Positions 16,164-56,900 are shown, counted from the stretch's first letter. The stretch: DNA of 64,000 nucleotides from Candidatus Paceibacter sp. (GCA_020725175.1 DYFM01000002.1:36880-100879); one strand, 5' to 3'. Numbers and translations: made by a program. The notes: a model not told the origin generated them from the sequence alone.

Positions 16164-16165
16164 GA

Positions 16166-16345
16166 TGTTACGGATTACGGATAATACGGAGATACGGATA
16201 ATTGTTTTGCAAAGTAAGCTGGTAGGTAGAATAGGTAGAGTAAGCTTATAAATTGTATCTAGCGTACTCTGCTTACTCTGCCTACTTGCATATTCTGCCC
16301 CAACACAATATCCGTAACTCCGTATTATCCGTAATCCGTAACATT
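16166..16345. repeat. palindromic oligo-repeat element (ACGGATA/TACGGAG arms, GTAAGC/GCAGAGTA core)
   Basis: GTTACGGATTACGGATAATACGGAG...CTCCGTATTATCCGTAATCCGTAAC inverted arms, with an internal GTAAGCTGGTAGGTAGAATAGGTAGAGTAAGC / GCTTACTCTGCCTACTTGC palindrome. Confidence 0.65.
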
Positions 16346-30562: not shown

Positions 30563-31029
30563 TTATGAGTATTGAACAACAGGAAAAACAATTGACTAAT
30601 CTCAGAGAACGAGAACGATCTCGAGAAATACGCGAAACTAAAGAAGGAGAACCGAATCAAGAGTTAAAAGCCGCAGCCGCCATGGAACGGGCGGATTATT
30701 TGGTAAAAGAAGTCAAACAAAGTAAGCAGCAAATGCAAAATATTATTCTGCATATGCAACAAGTCATGGCAACGATTAAGCAATTGCTTGCCGAGTTACA
30801 GTTGACTGATGATGATCTGCCGCAATCAGTAGCTCAAGACCAGAAGCGAGTTGAGTTGCTACAAAAAAGAATTGCCACGTACCGGGAAGAATTGATTAAG
30901 ATGAAAGAGGATTTGATAAAAGAGTATATTGAAACCTTGAAAGTACAAGAACCAGGTTTGCCGCAAGAAGAATTGGAAGAGAAGGCACGGTTGGCGGTTG
31001 AGGGGATTATATTGGGTGTTGAGAAGTGA
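30538..31029 (+). CDS. hypothetical coiled-coil protein
   Basis: Charged, heptad-rich 163 aa ORF. Confidence 0.35.
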   Translation: MSFRFTKMIMSIEQQEKQLTNLRERERSREIRETKEGEPNQELKAAAAMERADYLVKEVKQSKQQMQNIILHMQQVMATIKQLLAELQLTDDDLPQSVAQDQKRVELLQKRIATYREELIKMKEDLIKEYIETLKVQEPGLPQEELEEKARLAVEGIILGVEK

Positions 31030-31030
31030 A

Positions 31031-31567
31031 ACTAAGATTAAGAATAAGATTAAGATTAAGATTAAGTACGTTTACTGTTTATTGCTAATTGTTTTATGTC
31101 GGAAGTATTGTTACTAGAACAGATGTCTGTGTATAAGTTGCAAACCAATCTTTCAGATGAACTTTGGGAGATCGTTTCAGTGTGGAATTACTTTGCAAAG
31201 GATACAATAGGAAAGCAATTAACGAGGGCTTTTGACTCAATTGGAGCGAACATTGCTGAGGGGTACGGTAGATTTAATTATGGAGAAAAAATAACGGTTT
31301 ATTTCTACGCGCGAGGGTCTGCTTATGAGAGCCAGTACTGGATTAAAAGAGCAAAAGAAAGAAGGCTCCTAGAAAATGAAAAAGCAAATATCTATTTATC
31401 TACCATCCAAAAAATTACTACTGAACTAAATCGTTTAATAAAAACATGTAAGGATAAAAGATAGAATGTTATAATGTATCTTAATCATAAACATCGTTAC
31501 TAAACTATGTATTCGTTCGATTTTCAACCTCAACCTCAACCTTAATCTTAATCTTAATCTTAATCTC
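31031..31567. mobile_element. hairpin cassette: inverted (TAAGAT)n hexamer arrays flanking a four-helix-bundle gene
   Basis: 31031-31067 AAGATTAAGAATAAGATTAAGATTAAGATTAAG and 31526-31567 CAACCTCAACCTCAACCTTAATCTTAATCTTAATCTTAATCT are reverse-complement arrays. Confidence 0.5.
31096..31464 (+). CDS. four-helix-bundle protein (family of 23S rRNA intervening-sequence proteins)
   Basis: 'NYFAKDTIGKQLTRAFDSIGANIAEGYGRF....ARGSAYESQYW' signature of that family. Confidence 0.7.
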   Translation: MSEVLLLEQMSVYKLQTNLSDELWEIVSVWNYFAKDTIGKQLTRAFDSIGANIAEGYGRFNYGEKITVYFYARGSAYESQYWIKRAKERRLLENEKANIYLSTIQKITTELNRLIKTCKDKR

Positions 31568-33974: not shown

Positions 33975-33982
33975 TACTAAAA

Positions 33983-34065
33983 AATAGACCGCGGATTGAA
34001 CGGATAAAACGAATACAAACGGATCCGTCCAAATCCGTTCAATGCGTTTCATCTGCGGTCCATTA
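33983..34065. repeat. TAGACCGCGG..family palindromic element
   Basis: AATAGACCGCGGATTGAACGGATAAAACGAATACAAACGGATCCGTCCAAATCCGTTCAATGCG...CTGCGGTCCATT. Confidence 0.65.
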
Positions 34066-34135
34066 TTTATGAAAGCAAAATAATGTTCGAAATAAAAAAT
34101 TTCTTCGGCGGGGAAACTCATTCATTAAACTTCGT

Positions 34136-40163: not shown

Positions 40164-41372
40164 ATGAAAAAATTTTTTTTCTTAATATTGTTTACTGTTT
40201 TTTCTTTTCTACCATTATATGTGGCAGATGTTCTGGCTGCAAAGTGTTCGTGTAACCTTCAGTTTTCTTCAAAAAGTTCGGATCCTAATATAGTACCTTG
40301 TACGTTGAATAAAACGAAAGAATTTCCATTGTGCTCATCAGTTAATTTGAGCGGTTTGGCGAACGACCTTGATACGTGTGAGGTTGGGAAAGTCATTTTT
40401 GGTGCCGAAGCTGAAATACTACCCTCTACAATTCAGGTAAACGATTCAGGTTGTGCGGCAATGAGTAAGTCAGGAGGTGATAAGATAAACATTCCGATAT
40501 ATGGAGAAATAAACTATACTTATGATTTTAAGTGTCAGGTGATTGGTCAGCCTGTTGATAATGAAAAAGTTTGTCCAGTCAAAGCACCATCAAATGTAAA
40601 CTGTCCTAAACTCACAGAATCCCTTAACTGCGACAAACCAGAAAATCTCCAAAAATGTCAAGACACTTGTAACAACCAAAGTGAAAATCAGTGCATCTGG
40701 AACACTGCCAATAATTCATGTGTAAAAAAAGTCTTAGGCGCTGGTGGTGTGAGTCAACAAGACGCTGCAAAAATGTATCAAGATAAATTTTATGGGAAAC
40801 CAGAAGGTTATAACGGCTTCCTCCCTGATTGTGCCTTCACTGGTGACTGCGATGATGTGAACGATTTACTACAACTCGCCATAGGAATTGGTGAATGGAT
40901 ATTCAAAATTTCCGGTTCAGTCGCTTTCCTGATGTTTGTCTATGGTGGATTTATGATGGTGCTTTCTACCGGGAACTCTGAGCGAGTGAAAAAGGGGAGA
41001 GATATACTGGCGGCCGCGGTAGTTGGTTTGATTATAATATTCGGTGCCTATATGATTGTGGGATTTGTTTTGAATACTCTTGGGGTAACGGAATTTTATG
41101 ACTTTCGAGCTGCGCCAACTGAAGGTGGGGGGAGTTCTGTCTCTGAAACAACAAAATCTACTCAAAACAAAGAAGAGGCTAATAAAGATGAAGAACAACA
41201 AGCAGGATTTTGCGTAACCATAAAGGGTGGTGCGGCAGCTTGCATCCCAATAAATGGAGCTAACTGTGGCGATTATATTGGAGAAGATTCTAAACCTGGT
41301 GGTAGTATTATAACGGAAAAACCAACATGTGATGCGTTGGCTAACGAATTAAACACTCCCGCTTCACCATGA
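40164..41372 (+). CDS. TrbC/VirB2-like pilin-domain protein with N-terminal Cys-rich domain and C-terminal extension (member 2)
   Basis: 'SVAFLMFVYGGFMMVLSTGNSERVKKGRDILAAAVVGLIIIFGAYMIV'. Confidence 0.65.
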   Translation: MKKFFFLILFTVFSFLPLYVADVLAAKCSCNLQFSSKSSDPNIVPCTLNKTKEFPLCSSVNLSGLANDLDTCEVGKVIFGAEAEILPSTIQVNDSGCAAMSKSGGDKINIPIYGEINYTYDFKCQVIGQPVDNEKVCPVKAPSNVNCPKLTESLNCDKPENLQKCQDTCNNQSENQCIWNTANNSCVKKVLGAGGVSQQDAAKMYQDKFYGKPEGYNGFLPDCAFTGDCDDVNDLLQLAIGIGEWIFKISGSVAFLMFVYGGFMMVLSTGNSERVKKGRDILAAAVVGLIIIFGAYMIVGFVLNTLGVTEFYDFRAAPTEGGGSSVSETTKSTQNKEEANKDEEQQAGFCVTIKGGAAACIPINGANCGDYIGEDSKPGGSIITEKPTCDALANELNTPASP

Positions 41373-41971
41373 GAGTAACTATAAATATGATTAAATCTAA
41401 AGTCAAAGGTTTTTTCTTAATCAACATTTTTACACTGGGATGGTTGTTTTTCCCAACTGGCTTAGTATTATCATCTAACGGTGAGAAGTGCTTTTGTCTT
41501 GATATTAGTACTGATAAATTTGAAGAGGTTACTACAATTGCTTCTCAAGAAAATTGTACAGATGTTGAGGCGGAAAAAGTAAAGCCTACATATAGTCTTT
41601 GTACGTGGGAGTTACCAGAAAAACCAGTTCCTGAAAAAACGACAAGTGAAGTGTCAGCTGATAAAAGCAAAAATTCAACTAATGGAGGTGGTGAATGTGG
41701 CATCGACAAAGTCTGCCTCACCAACCCTCTCAAAGACGGCACAGACATCCCGACCCTTATTGGAAATATTATCAAGCGTGTGTTAGGAATTCTCGGTTCA
41801 ATCACCTTAGCAGTATTTGTTTACGGAGGATTCCTCTGGCTCACGAGTGCGGGTAATGCAGAAAAAGTCAAGAAAGGAACCGAAACAATGGCCTGGGCAG
41901 CAATTGGGGTCTTTATCATTTTTAGCGCGTATGCTATACTAAGTACGATTATAAAAGGGATTACTGGATGA
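41369..41971 (+). CDS. TrbC/VirB2-like pilin-domain protein (member 3)
   Basis: 'ITLAVFVYGGFLWLTSAGNAEKVKKGTETMAWAAIGVFIIFSAYAIL'; ATGA start/stop overlap with member 2. Confidence 0.65.
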   Translation: MRVTINMIKSKVKGFFLINIFTLGWLFFPTGLVLSSNGEKCFCLDISTDKFEEVTTIASQENCTDVEAEKVKPTYSLCTWELPEKPVPEKTTSEVSADKSKNSTNGGGECGIDKVCLTNPLKDGTDIPTLIGNIIKRVLGILGSITLAVFVYGGFLWLTSAGNAEKVKKGTETMAWAAIGVFIIFSAYAILSTIIKGITG

Positions 41972-41980
41972 TAATTGGAT

Positions 41981-42723
41981 GTGCGAACTTACGAACAGTA
42001 AGTACGAACATACGAACTACGAACAATTGAATCCGCCCACGGCCCCAGGCGTGCACAGCAAGGCGGACGAGGGTTTTATTCTCTCCCGATTTGATCGAGA
42101 AAAACTACCTATAGCGATACCCTGTCAGCTTCCACCCCGGGCGGACACGTGCTGCGGGGACATTCGTTTGTAAACTGCGAAGAGTTAGGTCTAATAAGTT
42201 TAAAAATATGCGCGGAGGGCAGACAATTGTACGAAATGATAAAATTTTGTATCCGGAACTAAGTTATCAAATAAATGGAGTTTTAATGGATGTGGCGAAG
42301 ACGCTTGGTGGCGGTCATAAGGAAAATTATTACGGAAATGCTTGTGCTGTAGGATTTACGAAAAGACAGATATCATTTCAAAGAGAAGTGTATGTGCCAC
42401 TCACATATGAAGATGAAAAAGTAGGAAAATATTTTGTGGATTTTCTCATCGAAAATAAAATAATCCTGGAGCTAAAACGTGGTCAATTTATATCAAGTTC
42501 AGTAATAGAACAGACAAAACAGTACTTGGTTGCAAAAAATCTAAAATTGGGAATAATTGGCTGTTTTACTTACAATGGGGTAGTTATCAAAAGAGTAGTA
42601 AACGAGTATTAAATATGTACGAACAATACGAATGATAAGTACGAACATACGAACTGCGAACAAAGCAACTTTTCTCGCCAGTTCGTAGTTCGTATGTTCG
42701 TACTTACAGTTCGTACGTTCGGA
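41981..42723. mobile_element. hairpin cassette: inverted (TACGAAC)n arrays flanking a GxxExxY gene
   Basis: 41981-42028 GTGCGAACTTACGAACAGTAAGTACGAACATACGAACTACGAAC versus 42617-42723 GTACGAACAATACGAA..GTACGAACATACGAACTGCGAAC...GTTCGTAGTTCGTATGTTCGTACTTACAGTTCGTACGTTCG. Confidence 0.5.
42208..42612 (+). CDS. GxxExxY family protein (PD-(D/E)xK-like; family known from 23S rRNA intervening sequences)
   Basis: 'TLGGGHKENYYGNACAVGFTK.....KYFVDFLIENKIILELKRGQ.....QYLVAKNLKLGIIGCF' fits the GxxExxY pattern. Confidence 0.55.
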   Translation: MRGGQTIVRNDKILYPELSYQINGVLMDVAKTLGGGHKENYYGNACAVGFTKRQISFQREVYVPLTYEDEKVGKYFVDFLIENKIILELKRGQFISSSVIEQTKQYLVAKNLKLGIIGCFTYNGVVIKRVVNEY

Positions 42724-42788
42724 CATTAACAAATAACCAGAACCACAAATATGAGTAATGATCTTCCATCGAAAGGAGGTGAGAGAAC

Positions 42789-43223
42789 ATGAGTAAAATG
42801 TATATGTTGGCGGCAAAGTACAAAGCTTTTTTTGCGGTGTTTTTTGCGCTCGGAATGGCATTTGTCCTTTCACCGGTAGCTTTTGCACAAACAAATGAGT
42901 ATTTGTCTACCGAATGTGGAGCTAATGATCCTTTTTGTATCGAGGGTGCAAGAGTAGAAAAGCTTGGCGATGAACCATTATTAGATACTATTACTAGTAT
43001 TATCAACGTTGCGTTGAGTCTATTGGGTATCGTTGCGGTGGTAATTATCTTGATTGGTGGTTTCAAATGGATGACAGCTGGTGGTAGTGAAGATAAGGTG
43101 GCCGATGCGAGAAAGTTAATTTTCTCTGGTATTATCGGTATTGCTATCATTTTGTCGGCGTGGGCAATTGCAAATTTTGTTTTGAGTGCCTTGGTAGATG
43201 CTACAGGTGCAGGTGTAGAATAA
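42789..43223 (+). CDS. TrbC/VirB2-like pilin-domain protein (member 4)
   Basis: 'IVAVVIILIGGFKWMTAGGSEDKVADARKLIFSGIIGIAIILSAWAIANFV'. Confidence 0.7.
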   Translation: MSKMYMLAAKYKAFFAVFFALGMAFVLSPVAFAQTNEYLSTECGANDPFCIEGARVEKLGDEPLLDTITSIINVALSLLGIVAVVIILIGGFKWMTAGGSEDKVADARKLIFSGIIGIAIILSAWAIANFVLSALVDATGAGVE

Positions 43224-43296
43224 CAGATGGAAAACAAAACCGGTTTTATTTTACCATCCGGATTCATGCGGAGCACTCGTTGCTCCGCAGTTGTAA

Positions 43297-43740
43297 GTGG
43301 TTCATTCCTATGAAACATTTACAACTGTTTCTAACCTCTTTTATATGAAAAAACGCCTCCTGTCATTTGTTTTCAGCCTTCTGATCATGTTTGGGGTACT
43401 GTCAATATCTACTTCTGTATCAGCCCTGGCACCAAATCAACCGGACACACTTGGACTTTCCTATGGCGCAGAAACGGGGTTGAGCGGACAAGATGTTCGT
43501 ATTACTGTAGCTAGAATCATTAGTGTGGCATTAGGATTGCTTGGTATTTTGACTGTCTTACTTATTTTGTACGCCGGATTTATGTGGATGACTGCGGCCG
43601 GGGAAGAGGATAAGATAAAAAAAGCCAAAGGCATACTTACAGCCGCCATTGTCGGGTTGGCAATTATTTTAAGTGCTTACGCTATTACCAGATTTGTCAT
43701 TGAAAGTTTGATGGATGCTACTGGGGTGTATCCGTATTAG
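43297..43740 (+). CDS. TrbC/VirB2-like pilin-domain protein (member 5)
   Basis: 'ILTVLLILYAGFMWMTAAGEEDKIKKAKGILTAAIVGLAIILSAYAITRFV'. Confidence 0.7.
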   Translation: MVHSYETFTTVSNLFYMKKRLLSFVFSLLIMFGVLSISTSVSALAPNQPDTLGLSYGAETGLSGQDVRITVARIISVALGLLGILTVLLILYAGFMWMTAAGEEDKIKKAKGILTAAIVGLAIILSAYAITRFVIESLMDATGVYPY

Positions 43741-43753
43741 CTATTGTTGTTGT

Positions 43754-43836
43754 AAGCAGAGTAGGCAGAGTAAGCAGAGTAGGCTTTTGCATTATTGAGC
43801 TTAATATGCGTAATCTGCTTACTCTGCCTACTCTGC
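43754..43836. repeat. palindromic GCAGAGTA-repeat element
   Basis: GCAGAGTAGGCAGAGTAAGCAGAGTAGGC ... GCTTACTCTGCCTACTCTGC. Confidence 0.6.
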
Positions 43837-43877
43837 AAAAAAACTCAGTAAATCACATTATATACTAACTTTCTTTT

Positions 43878-44633
43878 ATGAAACAGTGGAAGTTTCTCAT
43901 ATTCGGCATGGCATTCTCACTCATGTTTGTAATTGGTTCAGGAATTGTGCTTGCTGATAAGTATGGACTTGATGCCACCGCAAAAGCTGCTGATCTGAAT
44001 ACTACAGATAATTTACCTACTATTGTTGGTAATATCATCGGTACCGCCCTCTCCATTGTTTCTGTGGTATTTTTTATTCTCATGATTTTTGCCGGATTTT
44101 TGTGGATGACGGCACATGGTAAAGAGGATCAAGAGAAAAAAGCCCGGGACACTATTTTTGCGGCCATTATTGGTATTATCATCATCTTGGCTGCGTACGC
44201 GATTACGAATTTGGTATTTAGTTCGGTGAAGGCGGGTTCGGGGGGTGGTGGAGGTGGTGGGAGTGCTACTCCAACACAGACAGCTTCAGGTAATCAAACA
44301 AAAAAAACAGATGATGCCTGTTTAGATTTAAATGGTGAGTGTCAGTTTAACGCAACAAAAGGTGGAAATTGTACAATAGGCTCAATCTCTGGAAAATACC
44401 AAGAGGATAAATGTTTAAGTAACTCTTCAAAAACATATTTATGTTGCGTACCTACAAAACCGATTGGATATTGTATTAAAAATGATAAAATCTGCGTAGC
44501 TAATGATAGCGATGGAGAGAATTGCACAGACGATATGAGAGGGGTAAATGGAGAATACGGTGGAATAAAATTTGCTACTGAAAAAGAGTGTGATGTGTAT
44601 TATGAGACTTACTTGGAACAACAACTTAATTAA
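43878..44633 (+). CDS. TrbC/VirB2-like pilin-domain protein with C-terminal Gly-rich linker and Cys-rich domain (member 6)
   Basis: 'VVFFILMIFAGFLWMTAHGKEDQEKKARDTIFAAIIGIIIILAAYAITNLV' then 'GSGGGGGGGS' and a 10-Cys tail. Confidence 0.7.
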   Translation: MKQWKFLIFGMAFSLMFVIGSGIVLADKYGLDATAKAADLNTTDNLPTIVGNIIGTALSIVSVVFFILMIFAGFLWMTAHGKEDQEKKARDTIFAAIIGIIIILAAYAITNLVFSSVKAGSGGGGGGGSATPTQTASGNQTKKTDDACLDLNGECQFNATKGGNCTIGSISGKYQEDKCLSNSSKTYLCCVPTKPIGYCIKNDKICVANDSDGENCTDDMRGVNGEYGGIKFATEKECDVYYETYLEQQLN

Positions 44634-44665
44634 AAGAATCTTCATGTTGAAAGAGTACTGGGGTT

Positions 44666-45343
44666 ATGTTAGGAATAAATATTATGAAAATAATTGTAAA
44701 AATTTTCATTTCAGTGTGTTTATTTTCAATAGGTTTGGTAATATTAACGCCAACTACTTTTGCCAAACAAACAATCTCCCAAGCCCAAAGCAATCTCGAT
44801 ACCGTCGTTGATCAAACCGGGATCGTTTCTGAGGACACAAAGAATGTACCGGCAGTTGTAGGAACAATTGTGAGTATGGCGCTCAGTGTGGTCGCGGTGG
44901 TATTCTTTGCTCTCATGGTCTATGCCGGAATCAAGTGGCTGGTATCGCGTGGTGATGAGGAGCAGATCAAAAAAGCGCGGAGTACGATTATAGGTGCAAC
45001 GATTGGATTGGTTGTGATCATTAGTGCGTATGCATTTACGCAGTTTGTGCAGGAGCGGATCATAGAAGGACAAGGTCAAGGACAACCAATCGCAAGTCAG
45101 AACCAAATAGAAATTGGTTCAGATGCCGGTGGTGGTGTGGTGGGATGTTGTGTGGACACTGTAGGAGCGGCCGGTACTCTATGGAGTATTCCAAAATCAG
45201 CATGTCGTATTACTACATCCAAAGACTGTGAAACACGGGGCTTAACATGTGAAACAGGAGATAATTTTTGTACCAATGAAGATTGGGAGTTTGATGAATC
45301 TATCACAGATATTGCTTCGTGTATAGACAAGTATTGTGACTAA
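44666..45343 (+). CDS. TrbC/VirB2-like pilin-domain protein with C-terminal Cys-rich domain (member 7)
   Basis: 'VAVVFFALMVYAGIKWLVSRGDEEQIKKARSTIIGATIGLVVIISAYAF' then a Cys-rich tail. Confidence 0.7.
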   Translation: MLGINIMKIIVKIFISVCLFSIGLVILTPTTFAKQTISQAQSNLDTVVDQTGIVSEDTKNVPAVVGTIVSMALSVVAVVFFALMVYAGIKWLVSRGDEEQIKKARSTIIGATIGLVVIISAYAFTQFVQERIIEGQGQGQPIASQNQIEIGSDAGGGVVGCCVDTVGAAGTLWSIPKSACRITTSKDCETRGLTCETGDNFCTNEDWEFDESITDIASCIDKYCD

Positions 45344-45355
45344 CAACTTACTTTT

Positions 45356-45733
45356 ATGAAAAAAAATTTTTTACTAAGTATAGTTTTCTTACTTCTTTTA
45401 CCAGCTGTGGTATTTGCCCAAGGAGATTTTTCAAATGCAAGAGGTAACCTAGAAGATGTCGGTGCAAAAGTGGGAGGTACAATGCAAACTGATCTCGGTG
45501 CGGCTATCGGTACAGCTATCAGCGCGGTCTTGGGTTTGGTAGGTCTTATTTTCTTTGTCCTGATGGTCTATGCCGGATATCTCTGGATGACGGCGCGAGG
45601 AGAAAGTGAGCCAGTTGATAAGGCAAAGAAAATCATTACCGCTTCAATCATTGGACTCGTCATTGTGGCGAGTGCGTATGCGATTACGGTACTGCTTACC
45701 GGTACCTTTGATCAAAGCATTGGCGGGCAGTAG
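45356..45733 (+). CDS. TrbC/VirB2-like pilin-domain protein (member 8)
   Basis: 'LIFFVLMVYAGYLWMTARGESEPVDKAKKIITASIIGLVIVASAYAITVLL'. Confidence 0.7.
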   Translation: MKKNFLLSIVFLLLLPAVVFAQGDFSNARGNLEDVGAKVGGTMQTDLGAAIGTAISAVLGLVGLIFFVLMVYAGYLWMTARGESEPVDKAKKIITASIIGLVIVASAYAITVLLTGTFDQSIGGQ

Positions 45734-45760
45734 TCATGTTTCGTAAAGTGTTAGAAACGA

Positions 45761-45843
45761 AATAGACAGTGGATAAAACGAATCAAACGAATAAAAACGG
45801 ATCCGTTATCATCTGTTCCATCCGTCCAATCCGCGGTCCATTT
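45761..45843. repeat. TAGAC...CCGCGGTCCAT-family palindromic element
   Basis: AATAGACAGTGGATAAAACGAATCAAACGAATAAAAACGGATCCGTT...CCGTCCAATCCGCGGTCCATTT. Confidence 0.6.
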
Positions 45844-45899
45844 ACTCCTCAATAGCACAAATACAAAGAAATCAGTTCGTATTTATCCTAAAATATCGT

Positions 45900-46289
45900 A
45901 TGAAATTTCGAATCGGTTTTCAAAAAACACTCATAGTTGTTTTTCTCTCACTACTATTTATCAGTCCGGTATCAGCGGTTGAGCTTGGTGGGGGTCTGTT
46001 GAAAAATGCTCAGGAGGCATCTGGATACGAAGTAGCAACCCGCCTAACATTTGCCGAACGCCTGGGTCAAGTCGTACAAGTTGCCTTATCATTTGTTGGA
46101 ATTATTTTTCTCGCCCTTACTGTCTATGCCGGCTTTCTCTGGATGACGGCGCGTGGTGAATCGGATAAAATTGATAAAGCCAAAGAGATCTTAAAAGCGT
46201 CTATTATTGGTTTGGTTATTACTCTTGGTGCGTATAGTATCGCGGCCTTTATTGTTCCGGCCATTATGGCGGTCCAAGGAACTCCATAA
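45900..46289 (+). CDS. TrbC/VirB2-like pilin-domain protein (member 9)
   Basis: 'IIFLALTVYAGFLWMTARGESDKIDKAKEILKASIIGLVITLGAYSIAAFIV'. Confidence 0.7.
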   Translation: MKFRIGFQKTLIVVFLSLLFISPVSAVELGGGLLKNAQEASGYEVATRLTFAERLGQVVQVALSFVGIIFLALTVYAGFLWMTARGESDKIDKAKEILKASIIGLVITLGAYSIAAFIVPAIMAVQGTP

Positions 46290-56378: not shown

Positions 56379-56572
56379 GGTACGGATACTTTACTGATTA
56401 CGGATAATACGGAGTTACTGATACTTTACGGATTACGGATAGTACGGAGTTACGGATATTTGTGTTGCGGATTAGGTTGATAAGCAGAGTAAGCAGATTA
56501 AGCTAATAAAACACCAGGGCCTATTCCGCTTCTATCAAAAATCCGTACCTCCGTATTATCCGTAATCAGTAA
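56379..56572. repeat. palindromic ACGGATA/TACGGAG + GCAGAGTAAGCAGAT element (same family as 16166-16345)
   Basis: GGTACGGATACTTTACTGATTACGGATAATACGGAG... ...CTCCGTATTATCCGTAATCAG. Confidence 0.65.
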
Positions 56573-56590
56573 GGTATAGCTATTGACGTA

Positions 56591-56900
56591 ACTACCGTAA
56601 TTTCTTATACCTCTTTAAATCCTCCGGGCTATGTTTATGAAGTCCTAAATAGATTTCGATAAATTCTACCAGTGACGCAAGTCCAAGCCCGGCCATGGCG
56701 ATGGCGAAGATGGGTTCATTTTTATAGAGGGCAAAGATAAAGAGACAGGCGGCGCCGATGAATTTTACCAGATCTTGCCGACGTTCTTACTCGACAAATA
56801 CTCCGTACGTAAGAAGAACTCCACCAAGGACGGCGAGAATATAGAGAATAGTGATGAGGGTAGATTCGGGAAGGAAGGGGAGGAGGTTTTCGAGTAACAT
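56591..56900 (-). pseudogene. small membrane protein paralog interrupted by an in-frame TAA
   Basis: 'MLLENLLPFLPESTLITILYILAVLGGVLLTYGVFVE*ERRQDLVKFIGAACLFIFALYKNEPIFAIAMAGLGLASLVEFIEIY..' aligns across the stop with 56979-57212 ('..IFIKQETKQDWFFVFGGLF..'). Confidence 0.45.

Follow-up and report, generated by a model that had tools for sequence, protein, structure and literature searches.

A GxxExxY nuclease gene enclosed by inverted TACGAAC-repeat arms in a pilin array, and its proposed relation to gene-less hairpins and rRNA intervening sequences

Why does a gene of the GxxExxY family stand between two pilin genes and inside inverted arrays of the heptamer TACGAAC? The first-pass annotation of a 64-kb window (the whole stretch of DNA analysed here) had described this arrangement and had proposed that it shares a mechanism of mobilisation or processing with a second gene of the same window, both of which it assigned to families of the intervening-sequence (IVS) type. 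Where the IVS of rRNA genes come from, how they move and what their ORFs do have been open questions since the early 1990s (PMC4990558). We favour, with a probability of roughly 55%, the reading that the element is a gene-bearing copy of a widespread palindromic hairpin family of the IVS type, and that its nuclease recognises the unit arrays and mobilises or homes through them.

The location of the gene in a TACGAAC-repeat hairpin was confirmed, with one correction to the anatomy. The arrays around the gene are inverted, as described: a left arm (armL, 41979–42024) and a right arm (armR, 42681–42726) of 46 nt are 93% complementary and lie 656 nt apart. The block at 42617–42723, taken for a single inverted array, instead consists of a direct copy of the left arm (armL'), a short loop and the inverted right arm (Table 1). 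The insert of ~750 bp (41979–42726) runs in the order armL, leader, GxxExxY gene, armL', loop and armR. armL and armL' are 89% identical, armL' is 89% complementary to armR over 35 nt, and the three arm copies, all starting with ATGT, have a mean identity of 86%; in armL and armR, ATGT is followed by five T[A/G]CGAAC units. armR has two pairing partners, armL at long range and armL' in a local hairpin. The armL'-loop-armR block alone folds at −60.3 kcal/mol (z = −12.4), and over the full 764 nt the fold of minimum free energy pairs the distal armL with armR (z = −4.75). Paired TACGRA units number 19 in the 64-kb window, compared with 0.14 expected from shuffles. Rfam identified no family in 41900–42800, giving only spurious miRNA-precursor models that match the hairpin.

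Table 1 Coordinates of the element and of the host genes on either side of it.
Feature	Coordinates	Strand	Description
Upstream host gene, T4SS_pilin paralog (PF18895)	41369–41971	+	Left boundary of the insertion
Left arm (armL)	41979–42026	+	ATGT, then five TGCGAAC/TACGAAC units; 8 nt past the upstream pilin stop codon
Leader	42027–42207	+	181 nt; G+C 50–55% against ~40% around it; particular to this locus
GxxExxY gene	42208–42612	+	134 aa; small protein of PD-(D/E)xK nuclease fold; same direction as the pilin operon
armL'	42613–42663	+	Full-length direct copy of armL; begins directly after the GxxExxY stop codon
Loop of local hairpin	42664–42680	+	17 nt
Right arm (armR)	42681–42726	+	Inverted TACGAAC units; ends in ACAT
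Downstream host gene, T4SS_pilin paralog (PF18895)	42789–43223	+	Right boundary; RBS region GAAAGGRGGTGAGA kept in L006 and L002

Most homologous elements have just 0–40 nt between the arm and the start codon, compared with the long leader here. The leader was considered as a structured RNA and rejected, having no Rfam match and a fold no better than shuffles (z = +0.54). It was also rejected as a gene remnant: blastn and tblastx detected no similarity to it in the 80 loci of the survey described below, and its 64-aa ORF has no Pfam match. This ORF begins inside armL and its MCELTN start recurs in locus L002; the start is simply translated arm. The three-arm layout is also present in L007 and L070, and tandem arm duplications occur in L011 and L044. 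The hairpin-element model accounts neither for the three-arm layout nor for the G+C-rich leader of the window copy.

The enclosed gene is an intact member of its family, as first annotated. Its product matches PF13366 (PDDEXK_3; E = 1e-23, 84.4 bits against a cutoff of 22) and TIGR04256 (GxxExxY; 89.1 bits against a cutoff of 35), and carries the eponymous motif as G36-H-K-E39-N-Y-Y42. Residues E39, D78, E88 and K90 are invariant in an alignment of 38 GxxExxY sequences, and the catalytic set of D78, E88 and K90 is intact in the window protein. The protein has a restriction-endonuclease-like α/β fold whose nearest relatives are Cas4, Dna2 and RecB-type nucleases; a search by sequence returned no solved structure for it. 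The PADLOC defence models and PHROG phage models gave no matches, and no relatives were found in viral contigs. The family is large (16,675 cluster representatives of PF13366 at 50% identity), and many representatives consist of two tandem GxxExxY domains in about 260–275 aa (~265 aa). Because so many members are such fusions, the functional unit appears to be at least a dimer, and since the units are also arranged in pairs, each arm may be occupied by a dimer of dimers.

The pilin-paralog array spans 40164 to 46289 in the window, and the statement that the cassette interrupts it holds, since both adjoining genes are PF18895 T4SS_pilin paralogs. Four Magasanikbacteria have in common an array in which a solute-binding-protein gene is followed by ordered pilin paralogs, and the element occupies a different gap in each: between pil_41369 and pil_42789 in the window, one gene further downstream in L006, two genes further downstream in L011, and upstream of the solute-binding-protein gene in L002. 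The gap orthologous to the window site measures 37 nt between ORFs in L006, where it contains no hairpin, and 67 nt in L002, where it contains just a half-array of a different unit. As these orthologous gaps are short and the RBS region of the downstream pilin gene is conserved, the arms, leader, gene and hairpin together represent an insertion relative to L006 and L002. Four insertion gaps in one syntenic array support the view that the element is mobile. Target-site duplications, a check proposed in the first-pass annotation, did not emerge: at 32 well-defined elements we found nothing beyond the chance level of A+T-rich 3–5-mer direct repeats. The search for a strain-level empty allele or a presence–absence polymorphism returned only the same context; short-read contigs break in repeats, and those from other samples end inside armL and inside the leader. 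No second identical copy of the element is present in the 64-kb window.

The association of gene and arms was then assessed across the family. One genome per species was scanned, yielding 80 loci with homologs 41–67% identical to the window protein; the array counts refer to 84 genes, namely the homologs from these 80 other genomes and the window gene, with 473 other ORFs of the same loci as controls. An ungapped inverted-repeat score, comparing the 300 nt upstream with the 300 nt downstream of a gene, reached at least 30 for 53/82 GxxExxY genes and 18/473 control ORFs, and at least 50 for 25/82 and 5/473, respectively. The window gene scored 77, with just three of the 473 control ORFs reaching 60 or more. 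TACGAA was present within 120 nt upstream of 58/84 GxxExxY genes compared with 5.5% of the controls, and inverted TACGAA downstream of 60/84 compared with 7.4%. Inverted arrays with two or more TACN[AG]A units on each side flanked 62/84 GxxExxY genes and only 2/473 control ORFs; about a quarter of the homologs have no clear arms. Enclosure in a hairpin is a property of the GxxExxY family and not a local accident, and the arms are specific to the element rather than independent hairpins around whichever gene happens to lie there. There remains a very slight chance that the gene merely sits between two like hairpins of neighbouring intergenic gaps. Ordinary host genes are at times bracketed by TACGAA arrays (a pseudopilin gene in L002, L10 in L122 and PilT in L141), because adjacent gaps each hold an array, and the window is rich in oligo-repeat hairpins; the comparison of 62/84 with 2/473 nevertheless already refutes such an origin, and the orthologous gap in L006 is empty of any hairpin.

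The arms follow a grammar that is conserved across genomes. The unit is TACGAA[A/T/C], with the variants TACAAAT, TACTAAT, TACAGAT, TACGGAA and TGCGAAA, and the arm termini are often alike, reading ATGT[A/G]CGAA or GGATACGAAAT. The unit, and often these termini, recur around proteins that share just 43–67% identity with the window protein. Four units are present in 74/114 arms, with start-to-start spacings of 7(8), 9–11 and 8 nt. Elements of this kind occur in Patescibacteria and Bacteroidota, as judged by record title; L067, which contains genes for methylmalonyl-CoA mutase, a thiolase and a 2-oxoacid oxidoreductase, is for this reason not a CPR genome. When the two arms of an element are compared, 20.6% of positions between units are mismatched but only 2.5% inside units (Fisher p = 2e-21), and this confinement of mismatches to the spacers is not what would be expected from selection for pairing alone. 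Slippage could, through concerted evolution, make the units of any one locus uniform, which counts against the reading that we prefer. The arm mismatches show no sense-strand G.U bias (21 G.U and 27 A.C). Base composition was rejected as the cause of the TACAAA variant, the mean G+C being 0.42 in that group and 0.41 otherwise. The unit variant tends to track protein clades, which fits co-inheritance or co-evolution, and residues correlated with the unit variant exist, although this comparison is confounded by phylogeny. Several loci depart from the standard layout. In L028 (4404–4708), 3.2 tandem copies of a 95-nt unit containing the right TACGAA arm, 99% identical, follow just downstream of the GxxExxY gene and look like a recent local amplification. 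In L161 (2694–2820), an inverted array reaches the unusual length of 14 TACGAA-type units, and two or three GxxExxY paralogs stand in tandem, each with its own arms, in L017 (3231–5552) and L044 (2621–4433).

The GxxExxY gene has the same orientation as both neighbours in 66 loci and the opposite orientation in one, against a background of 488/602 co-oriented adjacent ORF pairs. A consensus scan of the leader revealed no promoter-like or terminator-like site. Co-orientation and the lack of a promoter-like site suggest that the gene has no promoter of its own and would depend on read-through transcription from the host operon; alternatively, the element may insert in a strand-specific manner with respect to replication, which would account for the co-orientation.

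Read-through would also suit a pure RNA-processing cassette, whose arms matter only as a double-stranded RNA stem for RNase III that releases or insulates a small mRNA, while the function of the protein is unrelated to the repeats. Such a cassette is consistent with the pairing of armL and armR in the fold of the whole element (z = −4.75), with genes that are co-oriented with host operons and have no promoter-like site, with the (GCTAAC)n oligo-repeat stem that brackets the 23S rRNA gene itself in L091, and with the cleavage of bona fide intervening sequences by RNase III (PMC4990558). We consider it unlikely for three reasons: a stem needs complementarity only, yet unit and spacing are conserved across phyla; mismatches lie between units and not within them, with no enrichment of sense-strand G.U pairs; and solo arrays that have no partner arm are common. 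As regards the earlier proposal of a common mechanism of mobilisation or processing, the four insertion gaps support mobility, whereas the conserved unit, the conserved spacing and the spacer-confined mismatches go against an account in terms of an RNA stem alone.

The position of the arms raises a further alternative. They lie 0–40 nt from the start codon and 0–20 nt from the stop codon of GxxExxY genes, and armR can pair with either armL or armL', an arrangement that would suit a switch. The arrays could accordingly be an auto-regulatory operator: GxxExxY would bind them to repress its own translation or transcription and would act, for example as a toxin or defence nuclease, on a real target elsewhere. 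This appears quite improbable, as it leaves the abundant gene-less hairpins, the solo arrays and the rRNA copy unexplained and the protein matches no PADLOC or PHROG family.

The gene-less copies became apparent in the reverse test, in which metagenome contigs were scanned for the four-unit TACGAA pattern, giving at least 80 loci as an arbitrary sample. Among the matches listed (80 loci), a GxxExxY gene was present in one, L099, a compact canonical element. Among the 101 arrays in these listed matches, 37 have an inverted partner within 150 nt and form short-loop hairpins, six have a partner 151–1500 nt away (two of these being the arms of L099) and ~46 have no clear partner, some of them having a degenerate one. 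Among the other pairs at 151–1500 nt in the listed matches, some have an ordinary host gene between them, for example L10 or PilT. Gene-less TACGAA hairpins also occur near the GxxExxY genes of many survey loci. Among the matches listed, gene-less arrays and hairpins greatly outnumber gene-bearing ones.

The window itself contains one solo TACGAA array (3508–3545) and two TACGGAT hairpins. The solo array, of four units, directly follows the stop codon of ORF 2856–3494 and is succeeded by a non-complementary (TGATTTA)n array, which is the reverse of the AAATCAT hairpin at 58335–58405; the whole stretch (3508–3595) looks like two unrelated half-elements joined. The first TACGGAT hairpin (16165–16344) is nested, with (TACGGAT)n outer arms of 36 nt that are 97% complementary and enclose a loop of 108 nt. 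Its inner hairpin is built of (GCAGAGTA)-type units (16209–16246 and 16261–16298) and is related to the free-standing hairpin at 43756–43836. The second (56386–56601) has a loop with just a half-array of TAAGCAGAG units, and its left arm is tandemly duplicated (56386–56462; period 35, 2.2 copies). Because GxxExxY genes with TACGGA arms occur in L070 and L017, a matching GxxExxY gene may lie elsewhere in this genome. Another palindromic family is present in five copies (7907–8012, 33978–34069, 45760–45843, 59094–59175 and 63424–63505), with conserved outer ends (AATAGACCGCGGAT...) and arms of AACGGAT/AACGAAT-type units. The analysis as a whole suggests that the many oligo-repeat hairpins of compact CPR genomes, rather than being just terminators, have been left behind by elements of the TACGAA kind.

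An abundance of gene-less hairpins is also what a domesticated system resembling REP/RAYT would produce. In compact CPR operons the hairpins would then serve the host, for example as processing sites, insulators or intercistronic stabilisers of mRNA, and GxxExxY would be maintained, largely by vertical descent, to disperse or repair them. The gene-less hairpins do lie between co-directional genes, often a few nucleotides before the next start codon and without a T-run, they far outnumber the gene-bearing copies among the matches listed, and GxxExxY, like a RAYT gene, has its own repeats on both sides. However, the position varies among close relatives, several paralogs stand in tandem (L017 and L044), the spread across phyla is patchy and copies are found inside rRNA; because of these features the element looks selfish, and we judge domestication to be improbable.

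That such hairpins can also land in rRNA, as the first-pass annotation had supposed, is borne out by metagenome locus L091, where a TACGAA hairpin replaces nt ~1164–1184 (E. coli numbering) of the 23S rRNA, that is, helix 45. The gene is a bacterial LSU rRNA (2117 bits), the insert reads GAATTC-(TACGAA)x5-loop-(TTCGTA)x5-GGAATTC and is gene-less, and helix 45 is the classical intervening-sequence site. Ribosomal RNA is present in two of the TACGAA metagenome loci listed, L091 and L156; in the latter, 6 nt separate the 16S 5' end from a TACGAA hairpin upstream of it. A blastn search with E. coli rRNA detected no rRNA beside the GxxExxY genes of L001–L080. The window contains no rRNA and just two tRNAs, and its element lies between pilin genes, so it is outside any rRNA helix. 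Other inserts were observed at the same two loci: L156 has a (AATGTAAA)n hairpin insert in the 16S gene (574–892), and L091 (2183–5990 and flanks) is a CPR 23S gene with several large inserts, near E. coli positions ~1953–2006 and ~2627–2657.

Under our preferred reading of a gene-bearing hairpin element with its own nuclease, the arms would fold back on each other in the transcript and make the insert structurally self-contained, which would allow operons and rRNA helices to accommodate it. RNase III would probably cleave the long stem, as it does in the intervening sequences of rRNA. GxxExxY, probably as a dimer of dimers, would recognise the unit arrays and either mobilise the element or, by homing, use cleavage and repair to place a copy of its own gene in gene-less hairpins. 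Homing into gene-less hairpins is a plausible variant and would explain the inverted arms, the absent duplications and the variable positions.

Other small genes are enclosed in a comparable way. The first case in the window, the TIGR02436 four-helix-bundle gene at 31096–31464, is indeed enclosed by (TAAGAT)n and (CTTAAT)n arms (31028–31567), and oligo-repeat arms of 3–5 units are present at 8/9 four-helix-bundle genes from the survey loci and the window. The four-helix-bundle genes thus share the enclosure seen at 62/84 GxxExxY genes. Their arm units differ by gene (TTAGTAT, TAAGAT, GTAGGA, AAAGATTT, GAATCAG and TTAGGG), differences that do not bear on unit specificity, as the nine proteins were not chosen for mutual similarity. 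Many of the high-scoring control ORFs belong to small families, comprising four-helix-bundle (TIGR02436-type), GIY-YIG, RAYT-like and DUF559-like proteins. The arms of the GIY-YIG genes are G+C-rich and do not consist of oligo repeats; small GIY-YIG genes in L006 (6408–7045) and L040 (2444–2803) lie inside inverted repeats of this kind (CTGTCATTGCGAG... and TGTCATTCCTGGC...), and one of them sits inside the orthologous pilin array. In L005, a RAYT-like gene (IS200-type HUH; 6820–7548) is surrounded by 27-nt inverted repeats at a distance of ~2.5 kb from the GxxExxY element.

We tentatively propose a broader generalisation, which we hold to be possible though less than even: GxxExxY proteins would be the mobility or homing nucleases of an unrecognised palindromic class, the arms would be multi-subunit binding sites, and the class would be the source of rRNA IVS, with S23p and GIY-YIG cargos as parallel classes that have their own arm types. 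If this is true, the 30-year-old question of the origin of IVS and the role of their ORFs gains a concrete, testable answer. The family-specific repeat grammar points to a nucleic acid as candidate ligand for this large protein family, whose function is unknown, and joins intergenic hairpins, gene-bearing cassettes and the rRNA helix-45 insert in one element family; TACGAA arrays such as ATGTACGAAATACGAAAGCTACGAAATTACGAA make simple band-shift and cleavage assays possible.

In the literature searched, the papers that mention GxxExxY deal with neither the repeats nor intervening sequences, the first-pass statement that the family is described from 23S rRNA IVS found no support there, and on CPR hairpin repeats and IVS ORFs we found nothing equivalent to TACGAA-armed elements; several known systems nevertheless share part of the design. 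The IVS of Salmonella, Leptospira and Coxiella are likewise closed by a long stem of terminal inverted repeats, and the small ORF within the loop reads in the direction of the host transcript. The long terminal stem has its counterpart in the 46-nt arms, 93% complementary and paired in the minimum-free-energy fold. In Coxiella, the 23S IVS has a 28-bp terminal stem with a four-helix-bundle ORF in the loop, is excised by RNase III and carries tandem GACAGAT heptamers upstream of the ORF (PMC4990558). Unlike IVS, the window copy is intergenic, its cargo is a PD-(D/E)xK protein instead of the four-helix-bundle S23p, its arms follow a unit grammar common to several phyla, and its excision by RNase III would be by analogy. 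Homing endonuclease genes, free-standing or intron-borne and including those of PD-(D/E)xK types, are similar in that a small gene for a nuclease fills a site of which empty versions exist as well; in contrast to those borne by introns and inteins, there is no self-splicing element here (no Rfam match), and the presumed target is a dispersed repeat, not a unique gene site. MITEs and Correia (NEMIS) elements are also short, non-autonomous, intergenic and co-transcribed, with terminal inverted repeats, but differ in that the TACGAA elements have internally repetitive arms, no target-site duplication that we could find and no DDE transposase partner. Processing by RNase III is known for Correia elements. 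REP/REPIN sequences and their RAYT genes likewise show one small nuclease gene between inverted copies of its cognate repeats, and gene-less intergenic copies are far commoner, as they are among the metagenome matches listed here. REP sequences have a G+C-rich stem with a GTAG/CGTC tag (tags listed in PMC3733652), whereas the arms described here are arrays of four 6-nt units, some copies of which are in rRNA; RAYT is an HUH Y1 enzyme like that of IS200/IS605, whereas GxxExxY is a PD-(D/E)xK nuclease resembling Cas4 and RecB. GxxExxY may stand to its arrays as RAYT stands to REP/REPIN, with a different nuclease in the same role.
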